From a virus (Duplodnaviria; Caudoviricetes): a stretch of 26,741 nucleotides of DNA. Of the stretch, positions 15,082 to 22,992 are shown piece by piece. Under the pieces are notes generated by a model, which was given only the letters and a program-made list of their open reading frames with translations, had not been told where the DNA came from and did not search any database. Position numbers and translations under genes: made by a program. The stretch lies in the IMG/VR virus record IMGVR_UViG_3300006752_003262, positions 1 to 26,741 of that record; one strand, 5' to 3'. Numbering within the stretch: the stretch's first letter is position 1; each line of letters opens with the position of its first letter.

Positions 15082-15652
15082 TCCTAGCGAGCAAGAAAAC
15101 TTTGTTATTGCAATGACCCAACTAAAGAAGGGTGGGCATTATGTCGAACTAGGTGCTTTCAATTCCCACGAGGGTAGTAACACCCGTATTCTTGAAGAGG
15201 ATTTCAATTGGAACGGTGTGTCGTTTGAAATTGACCCTGAACGTAAGGAGCAGTTTACTTCCAATAGAAAGAACCCTTGTTTTGGTGATGCGTTGAGCTT
15301 TGACTATACAGAGTATTTCAAGTCACAGGAGTGGCCTAAGCAGATTGACTTTCTGCAAGTTGATATCGACAACGGGTATGATCAAGCTATGCGACCTGAG
15401 GGAAGTCCGTACACTTCTCTGCTTGGGCTAATTTCTTTACCTCTTACTGTTTATCGGTTTTCGGTTATCACGTTTGAGCATGATGCTAACATGTACTTTC
15501 GGAACCAATCTATTCGTGATGCACAGCGAGAGATTCTAGACGCCTTAGGCTACACATTAGTTGTTAGGACTATACACGAAGACTGGTGGGTTGATCCTAC
15601 TGTTATTCAGCCAGATATCTACAGGCAGCAGTTGAGGTGGGAAGTTCTCTAG
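15062..15652 (+). CDS. FkbM-family methyltransferase
   Basis: YVELGA...SNT..LE...W.G..E, IDFLQVDID, VITFEHD, EDWWV; ATG 15062 after ggaga. Confidence 0.8.
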   Translation: MQNQQFSPSEQENFVIAMTQLKKGGHYVELGAFNSHEGSNTRILEEDFNWNGVSFEIDPERKEQFTSNRKNPCFGDALSFDYTEYFKSQEWPKQIDFLQVDIDNGYDQAMRPEGSPYTSLLGLISLPLTVYRFSVITFEHDANMYFRNQSIRDAQREILDALGYTLVVRTIHEDWWVDPTVIQPDIYRQQLRWEVL

Positions 15653-16965
15653 ATGATGATTTCAATCTTGCGGCGAATGCCCATACCGAGTCCGGCGCAT
15701 AGGTTGAAGGCGTGGGTGGCGGCGTCAACTTGATCGTCGTGGACTCGTGCTTCGGGGAAGGACGACAGTTCATCAATGAAGTCTGTGGTCCAGTCGCCTC
15801 GTATTAGACGCACGTTACCGTTAGCTACAGCCGCCGCAAATGGCTTTGCTCTTGTTACTTTGTCGCCTGTGGCTCGTTGCCCTGAGAAGGTGTAGCCTGG
15901 CAGGACGTACCGAGCGTATTGGTCCACTAAGTTTTTACCTGCTGATCCTGGTTCTTGCTCCATCTGGATTGTTATCTCAGGCCCGTCCTCTTCAGCAGTT
16001 TCTTTAATAAACTTTTCAACTTTTTCACCTTTCGCACGAATGCGGCGTACATCTAGGATGTAAAAGACACCGTTATCAAATGCTCCGAGGCATCCAACTG
16101 TCCAGTCAGGATCAGGATTAGAGTTAGACGGTTCAGTTCCGGCTAAGTCCCAGAATCGCACCACAGTTGTGTCTTTACTCAAGTCTGGCATTTCGCTTGG
16201 TTCAATGACCTCAAAGCTACCACGGTCAAACATTGATCCGAGTGTGGTTGCCCACCAGTCACCAAACTCTAGGCGCTTTCGTTCGATGGGGTCTAGCTCT
16301 GCGAGCATGGTGCGGTAGGAGTCTGGGTCAATTCCGGGGTTATCAGTTAGCATTGAGGGAATAAAGATACGTCCCTTGGTTTTACCTTCAACTAGGAAAC
16401 GCTGACGGACCCAGTTAGGTGCAGGGTTAGTTGCACAGCGCATTCTGAGAGGGACTGAAGCTAGCGGACCACTTGCGGGGCGGCGTAAACGTGAGAACAT
16501 GTACCGGTAATCTGCTTCTCTGATTTCGGTAACCTCATCCATTCCGATGAACTGAAACTCTGAACCCTTGTATCGCAGATAGTCGTTGATGTTATTTAGG
16601 TAACCGAATGTTATTCGTGCCCCATTGGGAAACGTTGCAGTGTACGCATTTGCGTTCCAGTGTACATCATCAAACTGCATAATCCATTCTCTGAAACGGT
16701 CCATTAGAGCGCCAGGTAGGGCAAGGTCAGCGTATGTGCGCCTAAACAAGATAGCACTGTAGTTTGGGATGTCCACGTATTGTAGAGCGGCCATAATCAG
16801 TGCCGAGGATTTGCCCCCACCTGCGGCTCCACCAAACATTACTTCTTGTCCTTCTGACCGGAGAAAAACTTTTTGAGTTAGCGAGGGTTCTTCAACCCAG
16901 TATTCAGATCGCTTTGGTTCTAAATATGCTTTGATTTTTTCCCAGTCGGGAGTCTCTGTGGACAT
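15649..16965 (-). CDS. terL: Terminase large subunit
   Basis: Walker A GGAAGGGKS, Walker B FIGMDE, ATNP, nuclease WDLA and HDDQVDA; SD aggag precedes ATG 16965. Confidence 0.95.
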   Translation of the reverse strand: MSTETPDWEKIKAYLEPKRSEYWVEEPSLTQKVFLRSEGQEVMFGGAAGGGKSSALIMAALQYVDIPNYSAILFRRTYADLALPGALMDRFREWIMQFDDVHWNANAYTATFPNGARITFGYLNNINDYLRYKGSEFQFIGMDEVTEIREADYRYMFSRLRRPASGPLASVPLRMRCATNPAPNWVRQRFLVEGKTKGRIFIPSMLTDNPGIDPDSYRTMLAELDPIERKRLEFGDWWATTLGSMFDRGSFEVIEPSEMPDLSKDTTVVRFWDLAGTEPSNSNPDPDWTVGCLGAFDNGVFYILDVRRIRAKGEKVEKFIKETAEEDGPEITIQMEQEPGSAGKNLVDQYARYVLPGYTFSGQRATGDKVTRAKPFAAAVANGNVRLIRGDWTTDFIDELSSFPEARVHDDQVDAATHAFNLCAGLGMGIRRKIEIII

Positions 16966-16971
16966 ATCTGC

Positions 16972-17003
16972 TTGTCTCCTAGACAAATAAACGGTACAGT
17001 ATA
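16972..17003. promoter_or_regulatory. Overlapping divergent promoters for terL and the portal operon
   Basis: Plus strand: TTGTCT-N17-TACAGT-N6-ATG(17007). Minus strand: TATACT at 17003-16998 overlapping the same -10. Confidence 0.55.
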
Positions 17004-17006
17004 CCT

Positions 17007-17165
17007 ATGAAGAATCTTCTAAATCGTTCTGGCGCTGCTCATATCATGATGGGCGCTGGTATACTACTAATAGGCTTTGGTATTAGTATACTCAGTTTGG
17101 GGTGGGGTCTGGCAAGCGCTGGCTTTGCTTGTGGAATTTACGGCTATCTCTTAGGGGCTGAATAA
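17007..17165 (+). CDS. 52-aa two-TM membrane protein upstream of portal (not in ORF track)
   Basis: MKNLLNRSGAAHIMMGAGILLIGFGISILSLGWGLASAGFACGIYGYLLGAE; TAATG overlap with the portal start. Confidence 0.8.
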   Translation: MKNLLNRSGAAHIMMGAGILLIGFGISILSLGWGLASAGFACGIYGYLLGAE

Positions 17166-18631
17166 TGGCGTGGAACTCAAGTTCAAATAAATCTCTTCAA
17201 GATGCAATCTCGGGGCAGCAAAAGGCTGCTTCTGTTTCGGTAGGCGCACCAGTCTCGTACAGCCCGTCGTTGACCGGCAATGATCGTGGGTATCACGATG
17301 GTTGGGATATCACTAAGGCTTATAAAGAGGGTGTGTCTAAGGTTACTTGGGTGTTCCGCTGTATTGATGTTATTTCATCAAACCAGGCACGCCTACCTAT
17401 GATGTTCCGCAAAGACAACAATCCGTTTGGTGAGGTTGTCGGGGATCACTCTATGTTGAAATTGTTCAACAACACTGCAAATGACGGAGAGAACGCTTTT
17501 GCCTTCAGGTATCGTTTATCTTCGCAGTTGCTGATTAGTAGCCGTGGTGTCTTTGTTGAGATTGTTAGAGGACGTGGCGGTAAGCCTATTGCGTTACATC
17601 TGCTACCCCCACAGAACACTTCGCCCATTCCCGATGTAAACAAGTTTGTGAAGGGGTTTGAGGTTCAGATTAGTGCGATGGAGAAGCGTACTATTAAACC
17701 CGAGAACGTTATCTGGATTCGCCGCCCGCATCCACTAGACCCTTATCTATCTATGACTCCGATGGAGGCAGCGGGTGTTGCTATTGAGCTAGAGAACTTG
17801 GCTAAGATTTATAACCGTAACTTCTTGATTAACGATGGACGACCGGGCGGGCTGTTGGTTCTTCGTAGTGAGATTGCTGACGAAGATAAAGAGGAACTTC
17901 GTTCCCGGTTCCGTGGCAATATTGGTCGTGCAGGGTCGGTTGGTGTCATCTCATCGGATGACGGTGCAGATTTCGTAGACACTGCTGCGAGTCCACGAGA
18001 TGCTGCTTACGTACAGATGCGTACTATTACAAAAGAAGAGATTCTTGCTGCGTTTGGTGTACCTGAGTCTATCATCGGTAACTCGTCTGGTAGGACTTTC
18101 TCTAACGCTATGGAGGAAGGTAAGGTTTTCTGGATGGAAACCATGTCTCCGCACCTTGACTTGATTGCTCGTTCCTTTGATAAGATTGACGACTCTTTCT
18201 TTGTGGATTTTGATGTGAACAACGTTCCCATTCTTGTCCTCGCTAAGCAAGAGCGTGAGCGTCACCATCTGACAGAGTTTCAGACTGGCTTGATTAGTGC
18301 CAATGAATACCGTGAAGCGTCCGGCAGGAAAAAGGTTGTTTCTGACATTGCGGACTCTCTCCTTTCTAACCCGAACCAGACCCCAATTGCAAATACAGAA
18401 AAGCCCATGAATGATCAGGGTACTGTCGAAGAGGGTGTGCCGTTAGATGTTCAGGCACAAAATGCTCAACAGTCCGTGGTCACAGAGTTTAGCCCAGAAG
18501 AGGGCGGCTTTGTTGAAGCAGGTACTGTAACAGGTACTGAAAATATTGAAGCTCCTGCATCACAAGTTCCAAGCGAATTAGAAGGCGATGAAGCGGAGGG
18601 TAAGAAGAGTGCCCCTTTTCAGCAGGTCTAA
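17165..18631 (+). CDS. Portal protein, HK97 family, with acidic C-terminal linker
   Basis: VFRCIDVIS...ARLP, NFLINDGRPGGLL, EEILAAFGVP, ANEYR. Confidence 0.95.
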   Translation: MAWNSSSNKSLQDAISGQQKAASVSVGAPVSYSPSLTGNDRGYHDGWDITKAYKEGVSKVTWVFRCIDVISSNQARLPMMFRKDNNPFGEVVGDHSMLKLFNNTANDGENAFAFRYRLSSQLLISSRGVFVEIVRGRGGKPIALHLLPPQNTSPIPDVNKFVKGFEVQISAMEKRTIKPENVIWIRRPHPLDPYLSMTPMEAAGVAIELENLAKIYNRNFLINDGRPGGLLVLRSEIADEDKEELRSRFRGNIGRAGSVGVISSDDGADFVDTAASPRDAAYVQMRTITKEEILAAFGVPESIIGNSSGRTFSNAMEEGKVFWMETMSPHLDLIARSFDKIDDSFFVDFDVNNVPILVLAKQERERHHLTEFQTGLISANEYREASGRKKVVSDIADSLLSNPNQTPIANTEKPMNDQGTVEEGVPLDVQAQNAQQSVVTEFSPEEGGFVEAGTVTGTENIEAPASQVPSELEGDEAEGKKSAPFQQV

Positions 18632-18644
18632 AGTTTGGTGACCT
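18595..18644 (+). promoter_or_regulatory. Predicted -1 programmed frameshift cassette 1
   Basis: GGAGG (18595-18599), 13 nt, in-phase C.CCT.TTT (18613-18619), then stem aggtc/gacct (18624-18644). Confidence 0.75.
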
Positions 18645-19413
18645 AGGTAGATACACAACTTGGGAAGAAAAAGCTCTATACAGGGTTGAGTCGTTAGAAG
18701 ATCAACTGTCTAAGCAGTTAGACGTTATTATTGACGCTCAAGAGCAGACAGTTCTTGATGCCATTAACACGCAGGCCACATCAGCTTTACTGACATTAGG
18801 GGAAGACGCCAACTTCGCTTCAATTGTCCCCATGTCGGCTTTAGCTGTAAGTACCATCCCTCTCACAGACTCAATGAAAGACATTTACCAGCAGGCGATT
18901 TCTGACAATATAGAAGAAGGTTATGGGGAATCTGTAACCGCAGAGCAGGCAGATGCCGCAATCTCTGAGCACCTAGCTACGGTAAACAATTTCAACTCCA
19001 CGACACAGGATCAAGTTGAAGTTTCCTTGGCCTCTGCATCGTTAGGGCGTGACAAGGACGGTAATGATCTAAACATTACTTTCAAGATTATTTTGGCTAC
19101 GGTGCTTATTAAAGCAGTTTTCAATAAATTGCGAAGTAATCGCAAATCTATGATTGTAGACTCGGCTGTTCTTGGCCCATATAACCAAGGACTGTATGAT
19201 TCTGCTGCTAGTGCCGATACTGGTCTGAACAAAGAGTGGATTTCGTTGAAGGACGAGAGCGTGCGGATCAGTCATCGACAGTTACACGGTGATAAAGTCC
19301 CTGTTAGTAGTGCCTTTTATGTGGATGGGACTCCGATTAGATTTCCGAAAGACCCATTGGCCCCTCCGGGCTTGACAATTAATTGTCGTTGCGTGTTAAA
19401 GTTTACGAGATAA
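18619..19413 (+). CDS. MuF / SPP1 gp7-like head morphogenesis domain, probably made as a portal-MuF fusion by -1 frameshift
   Basis: KEWIS..D..VR.SH..LHG, RFPKDP, INCRC. The frame is open from 18604, but the first ATG (18832) has no SD. Confidence 0.85.
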   Translation, partial: SAGLKFGDLGRYTTWEEKALYRVESLEDQLSKQLDVIIDAQEQTVLDAINTQATSALLTLGEDANFASIVPMSALAVSTIPLTDSMKDIYQQAISDNIEEGYGESVTAEQADAAISEHLATVNNFNSTTQDQVEVSLASASLGRDKDGNDLNITFKIILATVLIKAVFNKLRSNRKSMIVDSAVLGPYNQGLYDSAASADTGLNKEWISLKDESVRISHRQLHGDKVPVSSAFYVDGTPIRFPKDPLAPPGLTINCRCVLKFTR

Positions 19414-19448: not shown

Positions 19449-19509
19449 TCTCTAATGGTTCAGTTGCAGAGTGTACTATATGAGTGTCGCAGTATTCTTA
19501 AGGAGAGTC

Positions 19510-21126
19510 ATGACCAATTTAATTGAGCAGTCAGATGTTGCTGAGAACACTGATCCCGATTTTGATTTTAAGGCAATTTCCGGTCAAATCGGCATTGACA
19601 AAGCACAAGGCGTGGTTGAAGCGTTTGTGTCTGGTATTGGTAACAAAGATTCAGTCGGTGATGTGGTGGTTTCCGGTGCGTTTAATGGCTCTCTTAAACG
19701 GCGTAAGCCTCGTGTTGTGTGGGGCCACGATTGGAACCAGCCTATCGGTAAGGTTCTGGAAATTTATGAAGTTCCCAAGAGTGATCCTCGCCTCCCAGAA
19801 AAGATGAAGCAGGCAGGCATCGGCGGGCTATTTGCCAAGGTTCAGTTCAACCTCAACACCGAGCGTGGTCGTGAAGCTTTCGCTAACGTAGCTTTTTACG
19901 GTATGGACCAAGAGTGGTCAATCGGTTACAAGACAATTACAGCCGACTTTGATGCTGGGCGTCAAGCAAATATGCTTAAAGAAGTTGAGTTGTACGAGAT
20001 GTCTCCTGTTCTGCATGGAGCTAACCAACTGACTGGGACAATTTCTGTCAAAGACGACAGTGAGGGCACTGTTGAAAAGGGGGGAGTATATAGCATGGAT
20101 GACGACAAAGACGCTCCTTCTAACCGGGTGGACGCATTGTCAGCGATGATGGGACGTATGCTGTCTCAAGCGCTCAAAAAGCCAGTTCAGATTGTAGAGA
20201 TCACTGGTAACTCTGTTGTGTTCCAAACGGGTGAGGACATGACGTGGATGGCTACTTTCACTCGTGAGGGCGACCGTATTATGGTAGGCAAGCCGACTCG
20301 TGTAAAGCCGACGACTTCTTACACCCCCGTTGGTGATGAGGCCCCACCAGCAATGATGGTTAAAGACCCGGACGAAAAAGACGCTGAAGAGCCTGAGGGG
20401 GTCCGTGCTGATGACGACGAGCAGGGGACGTGGGCTACGCCAGACATTGCGCTGGCATGGTCGAAGACTCTAGGGTGCTCAGGGTATCACTCCCACGGTG
20501 GAGGCTACATGCCGTGCGAAACGCACGAAGAGTATGAGGAAGCATTGAAGAAGTTTGATGGGAATGCTAACATCAACTCACACAATAACTATTTAGCAGG
20601 TGTGGATGTTGATGAAGCCAAGGATGCTGCTTGCGGTTGCGAGTCAGAGAAGGACGCATGTGCTTGCGATACCTTGGAGGAGAAGGGCAGCATGATTCGT
20701 TATCAGAAGCCTGACTACTTGAAGGACCCAATGGCGTTATTGCTTATGGCTTACAATGAGATGCTAAAGATTCGTGGAGCAGGCGATTTGCGGGAAGCAA
20801 CGTTGAGCTTAATTAGCGAAGTTGAGAACTTTTTGACGGAGGCTCCCATGTCTCGCCCAATGGAGCAAGGGGAGAAGGCGACTTCAGGGTTTATTGTGCA
20901 TGTTAAGTGTTCAGAGGTGGAGTCGTTTGATGTTAGCAGTGCTGTTGCACAAGTGCCGGTGTTTGCGTTCAAGTCGGAAGACGGCGTTGACTTGCACTTC
21001 TCGGCAAAGGTTGAGCATCAAGAGTTGCTTGAGAAGGTAGCTTCAGCGCTTGCTGTGCTTTCTTTTGAGCCTAATATTTCAGTATCCAAGCCCGAGGACC
21101 TTGACACTGCTGCCGGTGTTGAGTAA
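19510..21126 (+). CDS. HK97-family prohead protease with long multi-domain C-terminal extension
   Basis: DSVGDVV..GAF, WGHDW (His), EWSIGY (Ser), ELYEMSPVLHGAN; SD aaggag before ATG 19510. Confidence 0.93.
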   Translation: MTNLIEQSDVAENTDPDFDFKAISGQIGIDKAQGVVEAFVSGIGNKDSVGDVVVSGAFNGSLKRRKPRVVWGHDWNQPIGKVLEIYEVPKSDPRLPEKMKQAGIGGLFAKVQFNLNTERGREAFANVAFYGMDQEWSIGYKTITADFDAGRQANMLKEVELYEMSPVLHGANQLTGTISVKDDSEGTVEKGGVYSMDDDKDAPSNRVDALSAMMGRMLSQALKKPVQIVEITGNSVVFQTGEDMTWMATFTREGDRIMVGKPTRVKPTTSYTPVGDEAPPAMMVKDPDEKDAEEPEGVRADDDEQGTWATPDIALAWSKTLGCSGYHSHGGGYMPCETHEEYEEALKKFDGNANINSHNNYLAGVDVDEAKDAACGCESEKDACACDTLEEKGSMIRYQKPDYLKDPMALLLMAYNEMLKIRGAGDLREATLSLISEVENFLTEAPMSRPMEQGEKATSGFIVHVKCSEVESFDVSSAVAQVPVFAFKSEDGVDLHFSAKVEHQELLEKVASALAVLSFEPNISVSKPEDLDTAAGVE

Positions 21127-21129
21127 AAT
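21101..21129 (+). promoter_or_regulatory. Promoter TTGACA-N17-TAAAAT
   Basis: Near-perfect consensus; the -10 starts with the protease TAA stop; inverted repeat ttgagta-aaa-tactcaa (21119-21135) covers the -10. Confidence 0.75.
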
Positions 21130-21153
21130 ACTCAAGAGCAATAGGAGTTCAAA

Positions 21154-22992
21154 ATGAGTGAAAATATCAATGACGACCTTGACAAGTTTGAAGAAATTGA
21201 AGCACTTCTTTCTGTTGAGGAAAAGGATGCTGCTGAAGACGAGAAGGACGATGCTCCTGTCTTTATGACTGAAGTTCTCTTTAAAGAGGCTGTGGAAACA
21301 GGCGACCTGCTAGACGAGACTGCATTTTCTGCGCTTGATCCTGAGGATCAAAAGGGCTATGAGATGATCAACGTTGTTAACGAAGAGACTAAAGAGCCTT
21401 TGGGCTGGATGTTCCGTTACAAGGCTGACGATGTAGATGAAGATGTCGAAGTCAAGGAAGACGCAGAGGCAGAAGTCGTTGCTGATGAGACTGACGGTGA
21501 GTCCGTTGAGGAGATTACAGACTCGGTTGACGAGAAGACCGCCTCAATCATGATGCAGATGGTTGCTGATGACGAAGAGAAAATGCCAGAAATGGTCATG
21601 ACTGATTCCCGATTGAAGCAGATGGAAGATGACGACGACCTTATTAACGAAGAAAAGTATGAAGGTCTTGACGATGACGCCAAGGATTCATACGAGGCAG
21701 TAGAAGTTGTTGATGAAGATTCTGGCAAGGGATATGGCAAGCGGTATCGCCGCCGTAGCCCGCTTGAAGTTAGCGCCATGCGTAAGGGTGAGGCAGTAGA
21801 GAAGGCCGATGAGACTGCGTTAGAGGAGAACGTTGTTGAAGTTGAGGAAAAGGGCGAGATGGCCCCCGAAGACATGTTTGACACGGAAGAAGAGGCACTC
21901 AAGCGTGCTGCCGACTTAGGTTGTGAGGGCACTCATGGTGCTGGCGATAAGTTCATGCCTTGTTCAACTCATGACGAGTGGGATAAGCTGAGTTCCGCTA
22001 AGCCTAAAGATAAGCCGGAAGCTTCTCCTGAAGCGGCTCCTGAGGCTGCTGAGAAGTCAGACGACTTCCTGTGCGGGTTCCAACGTAAGTCTGTTGCTCA
22101 GCCGTGCGATTTCTGTCAGGGTGGTTGCGCTCCAGAAGACGGTCTGCCCGGTTTGGCAGAGGTTGAGTCAGTCGTTAAAGTTGCGCACCCTGGTGAAATT
22201 GTTGGATCGGGTTACTCATCCACGGATGATATGTTTGTCATTGACGTTAAGTGCGAGGATGGAACATGCATTGAAGTGTTCCTGACAGGCGAAGGCGACG
22301 AACTTGGTTGGTTGCGTGTTGACGAGAGCCTGGTAGAAGGTAAGTCAGCCGAGGAACTGAACATCATTTCTTCATCTGACGCAGAAGCCGTTGCGGTCAA
22401 AGCCTTTGATGATATGGAGCTTGACACCTTGGCTGAAGTAATGGGCATCATGGTGGACGTATTCGCTGATGAAGATGTGTACGTTGTTGAACTTGACTCC
22501 GATAAGAAGAGCTTTGACTTCTACGTTTCTGTAGAGGGTAAAGTCTTAGGCTACGACGAGTACGACACGATTGAGGACTTTGCTTATGACATGAGCGAAG
22601 AGGAAGAGATCAAGGCACTTGAAGCCGAGCTTGAAATCAAGCGCATGTACTCACGTGAGCAACGTGAGGCAATGGCTGAGTCTGGTGAAGCTATGGAGGA
22701 TGGATCATTCCCGATTGCTGACGAGGCTGACCTCAAGAATGCCTTGGCCGCTTTCCAGCGTGCTAAGGATGTTGACGCTGCTAAAGCCCACATTGCTAAG
22801 CGAGCAAAGGAGTTGGGTCTTGAGGAAATGCTTCCTGAGGGCTTTGCTTCCAGTGAGGATGAAGCTCCCGAAGCTCCTGAAGCTGAGAAGCCAGAAGCCG
22901 AGGCAGCGGTTGAAGGCGAAAAGTCTGACGACTCCGAGTTGCTTTCCGCTCTAGATGAGTTCCGCAGTTTGATGGGAGACGATCTTTCCTGA
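21154..22992 (+). CDS. Very acidic multi-domain head-assembly/scaffold-like protein
   Basis: SD aggag; lies after the protease; contains a duplicated 53-aa unit, a DUF3721-like motif, a 4-Cys cluster, two PepSY-like units and a C-terminal DGSFPI domain. Confidence 0.8.
   Translation: MSENINDDLDKFEEIEALLSVEEKDAAEDEKDDAPVFMTEVLFKEAVETGDLLDETAFSALDPEDQKGYEMINVVNEETKEPLGWMFRYKADDVDEDVEVKEDAEAEVVADETDGESVEEITDSVDEKTASIMMQMVADDEEKMPEMVMTDSRLKQMEDDDDLINEEKYEGLDDDAKDSYEAVEVVDEDSGKGYGKRYRRRSPLEVSAMRKGEAVEKADETALEENVVEVEEKGEMAPEDMFDTEEEALKRAADLGCEGTHGAGDKFMPCSTHDEWDKLSSAKPKDKPEASPEAAPEAAEKSDDFLCGFQRKSVAQPCDFCQGGCAPEDGLPGLAEVESVVKVAHPGEIVGSGYSSTDDMFVIDVKCEDGTCIEVFLTGEGDELGWLRVDESLVEGKSAEELNIISSSDAEAVAVKAFDDMELDTLAEVMGIMVDVFADEDVYVVELDSDKKSFDFYVSVEGKVLGYDEYDTIEDFAYDMSEEEEIKALEAELEIKRMYSREQREAMAESGEAMEDGSFPIADEADLKNALAAFQRAKDVDAAKAHIAKRAKELGLEEMLPEGFASSEDEAPEAPEAEKPEAEAAVEGEKSDDSELLSALDEFRSLMGDDLS

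Follow-up and report, generated by a model that had tools for sequence, protein, structure and literature searches.

Predicted -1 frameshifting at the portal-MuF junction of an uncultured marine phage and its relatives

The locus and its question

How can a phage express a MuF domain whose reading frame opens inside the portal gene, lies in -1 relative to it and offers no conventional start codon for 76 codons? Documented phage frameshifts lie in tail chaperones, tail tubes and capsids, and the tail-chaperone G/GT junction is the canonical place for a -1 shift in phages. The junction considered here is that of a portal gene, not that of a tail assembly chaperone preceding a tape measure gene. 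It lies in a stretch of 26,741 nucleotides from an uncultured marine phage (IMG/VR record IMGVR_UViG_3300006752_003262), referred to below as the window. A preliminary description of this DNA had proposed that a programmed -1 frameshift yields a portal-MuF fusion alongside the plain portal protein.

The features of the locus are collected in Table 1. The first part of phrog_2662, a portal-MuF fusion family, aligns to portal residues 21-433. The PF04233 domain occupies residues 178-265 of the -1 frame and lies directly 3' of the portal gene, as in the MuF superfamily (MuF1). The elements that the preliminary description had placed at the site itself are all there: an in-phase heptamer whose TTT codon is the fourth before the portal TAA, an internal Shine-Dalgarno (SD) sequence GGAGG 13 nt upstream, and a -1 frame that opens at 18604, just 3' of a TAA (18601-18603), runs for 76 codons without ATG, GTG or TTG to an ATG at 18832 that has no SD-like pairing, and continues into the MuF domain. 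A -1 shift on the heptamer is predicted to produce a fusion of 749 residues. GGAGG, the rest of the purine element and the heptamer are together called the cassette below. A scan of the window for promoters and terminators gave results at chance level. As a side observation, DUF3721 is present both in the protease ORF and in the next acidic ORF (window 19471-22992).

Table 1. Positions of the features at and around the portal-MuF junction in the window
Feature	Position	Strand	Remarks
Terminase large subunit	15649..16986	-	PF03237/PF17289; divergent from portal operon
Portal gene	17165..18631	+	488 aa, frame 0 product; PF04860, E 8e-53; stop 18629-18631
Internal SD-like GGAGG	18595..18599 (GAGG core 18596-18599)	+	13 nt 5' of heptamer; likely stimulator
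Rest of 5' purine element, R-T-R-R-G-M-A-G	18600..18607	+	conserved; includes -1-frame stop 18601-18603
MuF (gp7/gpF-like) frame	18604-19413 open; 18613..19413 predicted portal extension	+	-1 relative to portal; PF04233
Slippery heptamer C_CCT_TTT (X_XXY_YYZ)	18613..18619	+	in phase; predicted -1 shift site
3' stem and pseudoknot partner of the preliminary description	18624..18661	+	present, not conserved, outside signal
Start-less N-terminal part of MuF, conserved Trp to first ATG	18661..18831	+	pN/pS 0.26; predicted helices
HK97-type prohead protease (S78) ORF	19471..21126	+	PF04586

Conservation of the junction among relatives

Among 240 loci examined, 229 reached the end of the portal gene and gave 85 distinct junctions. 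The preliminary description had named relatives as the place to look for the heptamer with its -1 offset, or for in-frame fusions, and both were found: MuF lies in -1 behind an in-phase CCCTTTN in 49 of the 85 junctions and is fused to the portal in frame in 17, four of which belong to cultured actinophages. Ten junctions have no detectable MuF (one being the long Cantare portal), five have MuF in +1 and three have it in -1 without the heptamer, which is absent from all junctions of these three kinds. The one remaining junction (L282) has too little flank; it shows C CCT TTA, and its -1 frame is open and MuF-like. Being related by descent, the 49 junctions do not count as independent events, and their portals diverge to about 66% identity. 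The MuF-less and +1 lineages are nested inside the frameshift clade in a quick tree; both trees that were made are quick searches in which distant portals drew long-branch warnings, and the junction tree omits three short rows. One relative (L267:805-2268) is a mosaic portal whose N-terminal half resembles L283 and whose C-terminal half, with the cassette, belongs to the clade of the window; it is either a recombinant or a chimeric assembly. The GTDB genomes contained no relative of the portal and one match to the cassette, on a 3-kb MAG contig. On this contig (L375), which belongs to an Opitutaceae MAG, a cassette-bearing portal runs on in frame 0; it is a candidate host link on a contig too short to name the host.

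Could the junction be an assembly error or the remnant of a decayed single fusion gene? In-frame fusions are common (17/85), which is what gives this idea its appeal. In the window, portal and MuF do not form one uninterrupted frame, being separated by the stop at 18629-18631 and by the conserved offset. The same -1 offset recurs across 49 diverged junctions, which refutes an artefact or decay, and MuF is intact and under selection. The preliminary description had also advised looking for an indel in the C4T4 run; this was done in contigs, which hide rare variants, and those of eight runs (five of them possibly the source of the window) show no indel at the site. We regard this explanation as next to impossible.

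The letters that are conserved, and those that are not, are informative about the process. GAGG at -17 to -14 from the heptamer and the in-phase CCCTTT are invariant in the 49 junctions, as are T-12, G-9, A-7 and G-6, and the triplet at -12 is TGA in 30, TAG in 16 and TAA in 3. The last base of the heptamer varies (T in 39, A in 6, C in 4). The codon 5' of the proline encodes six different amino acids, yet its third base is C throughout; the glutamate codon is always GAG and the proline codon always CCT, against usages of 0.42 and 0.36 in the portal body. A free last base together with fixed NNC and CCT codons is the pattern expected of tandem slippage on X_XXY_YYZ. As background, CCCTTT is found in phase at 4 of 23,727 codon positions in the portal bodies of relatives. 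Pairing with the anti-SD, taken here as a generic sequence that may not be that of the host, peaks over GAGG at a mean of -11.0 kcal/mol, a strength that on average 1.5% of portal-body windows attain.

A motif in the portal tail might instead be kept as a peptide, for example as a Lys-Ser site of the head protease, and have nothing to do with recoding. Within the main clade Lys-Ser hardly varies, and across lineages the serine is encoded by both AGY and TCN codons. However, synonymous positions are fixed, and lysine is found replaced by glutamine and glycine by aspartate with the nucleotides unchanged; the cassette moreover recurs in tail chaperones, and a peptide would leave MuF unexpressed. 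While a dual role as recoding signal and peptide is possible, we give very little credence to a peptide in place of recoding.

The start-less region of MuF

The stretch between the conserved tryptophan and the first ATG behaves as coding sequence. Over the 50 codons from this tryptophan, pN/pS is 0.26 (105 within-group pairs from 32 sequences), and the MuF frame contains no stop in 1600 codons, compared with 181 and 156 in the other two frames, so the comparison of sequences indicates that the stretch is under purifying selection. Structure prediction also places it within the folded MuF domain: an AlphaFold model of MuF has a mean pLDDT of 79.7, with helices at residues 20-54 and 57-68 at about 90. 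This model gave 68 matches at E <=0.001 in a Foldseek search of BFVD, among them models of head-morphogenesis and minor-capsid proteins, and none at that threshold in a fold search of the PDB. Positions 481-706 of phrog_2662 align to residues 20-266 of the MuF frame, which makes the start-less stretch a homologue of the equivalent segment in natural fusions. A W-x-x-K motif (window 18661-18672) opens MuF in 45 of the 49 frameshift junctions and in 10 of 13 uncultured fusions, and it is a candidate cut site at which a head protease could release MuF from the portal.

These data bear on the view that MuF is made as a separate protein, from an SD-less or otherwise non-standard start or by coupling to portal termination, with the overlap of the two frames being incidental. 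There are relatives that do so: in eight junctions from two related lineages, MuF is a separate gene without the heptamer and has its own ATG just 5' of the conserved tryptophan, where SD pairing is weak (about -3.9 kcal/mol). In addition, all 43 relatives tested retain the ATG at 18874, and two of them have SD pairing there. The first ATG, GTG or TTG of the MuF frame, however, falls at 19 different positions and is accompanied by SD pairing in one relative out of 43; portal starts, for comparison, have an SD in 46 of 46. No CTG or ATH codon is conserved 5' of the tryptophan in the 49 junctions. Starting at 18832 or 18874 would remove the two predicted helices, which are under selection and also present in the in-frame fusions, and would leave the heptamer unexplained. 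An independent start of MuF thus appears highly improbable to us.

Mechanism and RNA structure

We consider it very likely, on comparative grounds, that a programmed -1 ribosomal frameshift yields both the 488-aa portal and a portal-MuF fusion of about 749 aa. The part of the original proposal that placed this shift at C_CCU_UUU with an upstream SD has gained strong comparative support (49/49 junctions, selection on MuF), and its 3' stem and pseudoknot have not. In the proposed mechanism, the 3' end of 16S rRNA in an elongating ribosome would pair with GAGG. At CCU-UUU the spacer to GAGG would then be stretched to 13-14 nt and the tRNAs in the P and A sites destabilised, so that tRNA-Pro and tRNA-Phe (or Leu) could re-pair on CCC and UUU with no RNA structure on the 3' side. 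A fraction of the ribosomes would slip back by one base, and both products would arise from one mRNA. Portal and portal-MuF would presumably co-assemble in a mixed ring, through which MuF would enter the head covalently. The available parts of the literature are in line with such a signal: in E. coli all four C_CC.U_UU.N motifs shift, those ending in A, G or U at >0.10% without stimulators and C_CC.U_UU.C at a high level, stimulation by a GAGG 6-17 nt upstream is proven, and 3' structures are not always present in prokaryotes (PMC4066793). According to another source consulted in part, the optimum SD distance in dnaX is 10-14 nt, and back-slippage driven by an SD at 12-14 nt has been shown (bioRxiv 10.1101/2020.04.16.045807).

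The 3' stimulator of the preliminary description is a 5-bp stem (18624-18628/18640-18644) with a loop partner at 18657-18661; it is present in the window, but not beyond chance. Among 11 indel-free close relatives, only the window and L001 retain the two helices in full, and downstream folding is at the level of shuffled sequences, with z values of +0.17, +0.47 and -0.03 for three windows of the locus, mean values of -0.6, -0.14 and 0.0 over the 49 junctions, and the same result for 38 cassettes picked across gene types. This stimulator was consequently rejected. As the 3' structure is not conserved, stimulation appears to come from the 5' side only, and without a 3' stimulator the efficiency of the shift may be low.

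On the 5' side, GAGGG could pair with CCCTT of the heptamer in a hairpin. Its mean z is -1.25, with 13 of the 49 junctions below -2, and it amounts to only -0.5 to -1.4 when the invariant letters are kept constant; this pairing is possible and weakly supported. A stop of the -1 frame at -12 was considered as a further requirement, being conserved in 49 of 49 junctions with TGG in 1 of 114 motif matches; it was dropped because the cassette occurs without such a stop in the L430 portal and in five lineages of the chaperone type. The stop probably arises as a side effect of the purine element. Apart from one mismatch, the conserved letters beyond GAGG resemble the 5' portion of the consensus SD UAAGGAGGU given in bioRxiv 10.1101/2020.04.16.045807, and they might serve as a second docking register.

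A rival that would also deliver the same two proteins is slippage of the RNA polymerase on the C/T runs, which would add a base, perhaps aided by the GAGGG/CCCTT hairpin. A precedent for hairpin-stimulated slippage on a mixed run, T5C5, is described for a Roseiflexus IS in the available part of PMC5009743. In that precedent, as far as the text available goes, the hairpin lies 5' of a 10-nt run and a base is deleted, whereas the hairpin considered here would contain the site; the hallmark of such realignment, an extended homopolymer or a T5C5-like stretch with a hairpin immediately 5' of it, is not found here. Only C3T3 is invariant while the flanking bases vary, and in near-relative contigs from two RNA libraries, which may hold DNA, a substitution at 18612 shortens the C run. 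The free last base and the fixed codon phase, finally, fit tandem tRNA slippage. We therefore think that polymerase slippage is improbable and that the shift, if it occurs, is most probably made by the ribosome.

Spread of the cassette and its two polarities

A strict form of the motif gave 65 viral matches, 64 of them at portal/MuF junctions, and a relaxed form gave 114. From 36 new loci with full flanks plus L093, seven loci of the main clade and two with short upstream frames were set aside, and a family scan of the 28 remaining upstream frames identified 17 portals, one tail chaperone, one MptE-like protein and nine frames without a family. The 17 portals match PF04860 and, in four cases, PF06381, a second portal family. 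A further 34 loci with short flanks were classed by our own profiles and by translation only. The tail chaperone (L319) has PF11836 upstream and a -1 frame that matches PF06223/PF09550; it is flanked by the major-tail and tape-measure genes.

Two sets of control letters at -12 to -10 were searched as well, for which the family scan covered only the 22 frames with at least 60 upstream codons. Set one gave 22 matches (15 distinct), none at a portal and one at a site of the chaperone type (L390); set two gave 61 matches (48 distinct) with one portal (L430) and four chaperone-type lineages, two assigned by phrog_344 (L400, L456) and two by layout (L414, L445). The cassette thus occurs at seven lineages of the tail-chaperone G/GT type, three by family match (L319, L400, L456) and four by their layout 5' of a tape-measure gene (L306, L390, L414, L445). 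Six other spacings between GAGG and heptamer gave 27 matches, which is the chance level, and none of the five with a long upstream frame had a PHROG family. As the motif was imposed by the searches, the matches show where the cassette occurs and not which of its letters are needed. A search for longer in-frame fusion proteins gave 3 weak matches among 4829 candidates.

Several loci deserve mention in their own right. In L313 and L329, a PF06381 portal is fused to an Acb1-like domain (PF23474) with the cassette right behind it; here the -1 frame stops after 2 codons and frame 0 continues for 149 codons without a family match. Long genes without a family also carry the cassette, in forward (L317, L321, L337) or inverse arrangement (L328, L331, L352, L356, L366), and their sequences make them candidates for further recoded genes. 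Three distant portals with the cassette (L305, L316, L340) have -1 extensions of 212-215 codons that miss PF04233 and end in a Cys-rich C-terminus. The portals of L303:1610-5005, L310 and L311 are interrupted by inteins with LAGLIDADG-like endonucleases, identified by Pfam in L310/L311 and by inspection in L303. About 20 viral contigs (L404, L406, L408, L409, L417, L419, L421, L425, L426, L437, L440-L443, L451 and duplicates) contain a motif GAGGG-R-A-R-G-M-AGCCA-Y-ACCCTTTT, mostly outside long in-phase frames, which is possibly a family of structured RNAs or terminators.

The cassette is also found with the inverse polarity, in which it is intact but it is frame 0 that runs on into MuF, the -1 frame ending after 3-13 codons (L303, L322, L323, L333, L335, L338, L310/L311, L430; L323 is truncated and was assigned by 76/144 identities to L303). 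Sister lineages differ in this respect: L309 and L322, whose MuF parts are identical at 192 of 277 positions, L343/L345 and L338, judged by their MuF N-termini, and the group of the window and L303/L323. Among the 17 fused junctions, two (L221, L303) have an in-phase heptamer in the stretch scanned, which in the four cultured fusions may miss the true linker. With either polarity a shift would give portal both with and without MuF, and it is this mixture that appears to be selected, as the sequences suggest. The same efficiency would give opposite ratios in the two polarities, hence the low-copy logic of the preliminary description cannot be assumed. The idea that shift efficiency would set a low MuF number per ring is complicated by the inverse polarity, by full fusions whose scanned stretch showed no heptamer and by MuF-less lineages.

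On balance we lean, by a little, towards regarding GAGG-R-TRR-G-M-AG-N5-CCCUUUH as a portable, structure-free -1 module of diverse phages that operates at portal/MuF and tail-chaperone junctions and in both portal polarities, the frame downstream having changed by one base in at least three flips with the signal left intact. If so, the module would either add MuF to a plain portal or truncate a fused one, and selection would act on a portal ring that mixes subunits with and without covalent MuF cargo, possibly freed by the head protease at W-x-x-K.

Significance and comparison with known systems

If the frameshift is real, these marine phages would have a DNA-packaging ring of two isoforms, and start-less MuF genes would be mis-annotated as truncated ORFs. 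A 24-nt signal for which nature provides forward, inverse, fused, separate and MuF-less versions opens the number of MuF per head to direct testing, and a 5'-only cassette would be a clean system for SD-driven back-slippage without downstream RNA structure.

No frameshift in a portal gene was found in the literature searched, much of it available in part, and supplements of frameshift surveys may list such sites. The word 'portal' is absent from the first 300,000 of 449,034 characters of PMC5009743, from PMC3711429 and from PMC10274946, which has MuF once, among predicted false positives; the available parts of PMC7911831 and PMC4276943 deal with frameshifts in tail chaperones.

Four known systems come close to the one described here. 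The slippery motif of dnaX is A_AAA_AAG. As in dnaX, IS911 and IS3-type elements, going by the parts of the sources consulted, an in-phase X_XXY_YYZ is combined with an SD-like element 10-14 nt upstream, and relatives of inverse polarity would, like dnaX, give a shorter shifted product. In contrast to dnaX and IS911, the motif is C_CCU_UUN, the 5' purine tract is longer, there is no conserved 3' stem-loop and the gene is a virion structural gene. The tail-chaperone genes G/GT (lambda; SPP1 17.5/17.5*) likewise use a -1 shift at the end of a gene, yielding one short product and one with a C-terminal extension, and their shift may work without structural stimulators (available parts of PMC5009743, PMC6316719); here, however, the gene is a portal and the extension MuF, the products would be virion components, and the polarity flips from one lineage to another.

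In SPP1, as in the window, the gp7 (MuF) gene lies directly 3' of that of the gp6 portal, and MuF is predicted to reach the head via the portal; gp7, however, is a separate protein on the portal, present at 1-2 copies per capsid and dispensable for assembly, whereas the link would be covalent here (PMC5576092, PMC6316719, consulted in part). SPP1 gp7 is the only well-studied MuF protein, and function and copy number of MuF are poorly understood according to the first of these sources. The same domain order is found in single-ORF portal-MuF fusions, such as gp46 of Streptomyces phage Gilgamesh, those of Microbacterium phages of the EA3, EA5, EA8 and EB groups (available part of PMC7302621) and the family phrog_2662, and the cultured portals that come nearest (39-43% identity) are either long or part of fusions. 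Unlike in those phages, the fusion would here require recoding, with the plain portal as the default product. Portal-MuF fusions are thus already known as single ORFs and a dnaX/IS911-like signal is known from elsewhere, here in a 5'-only form.
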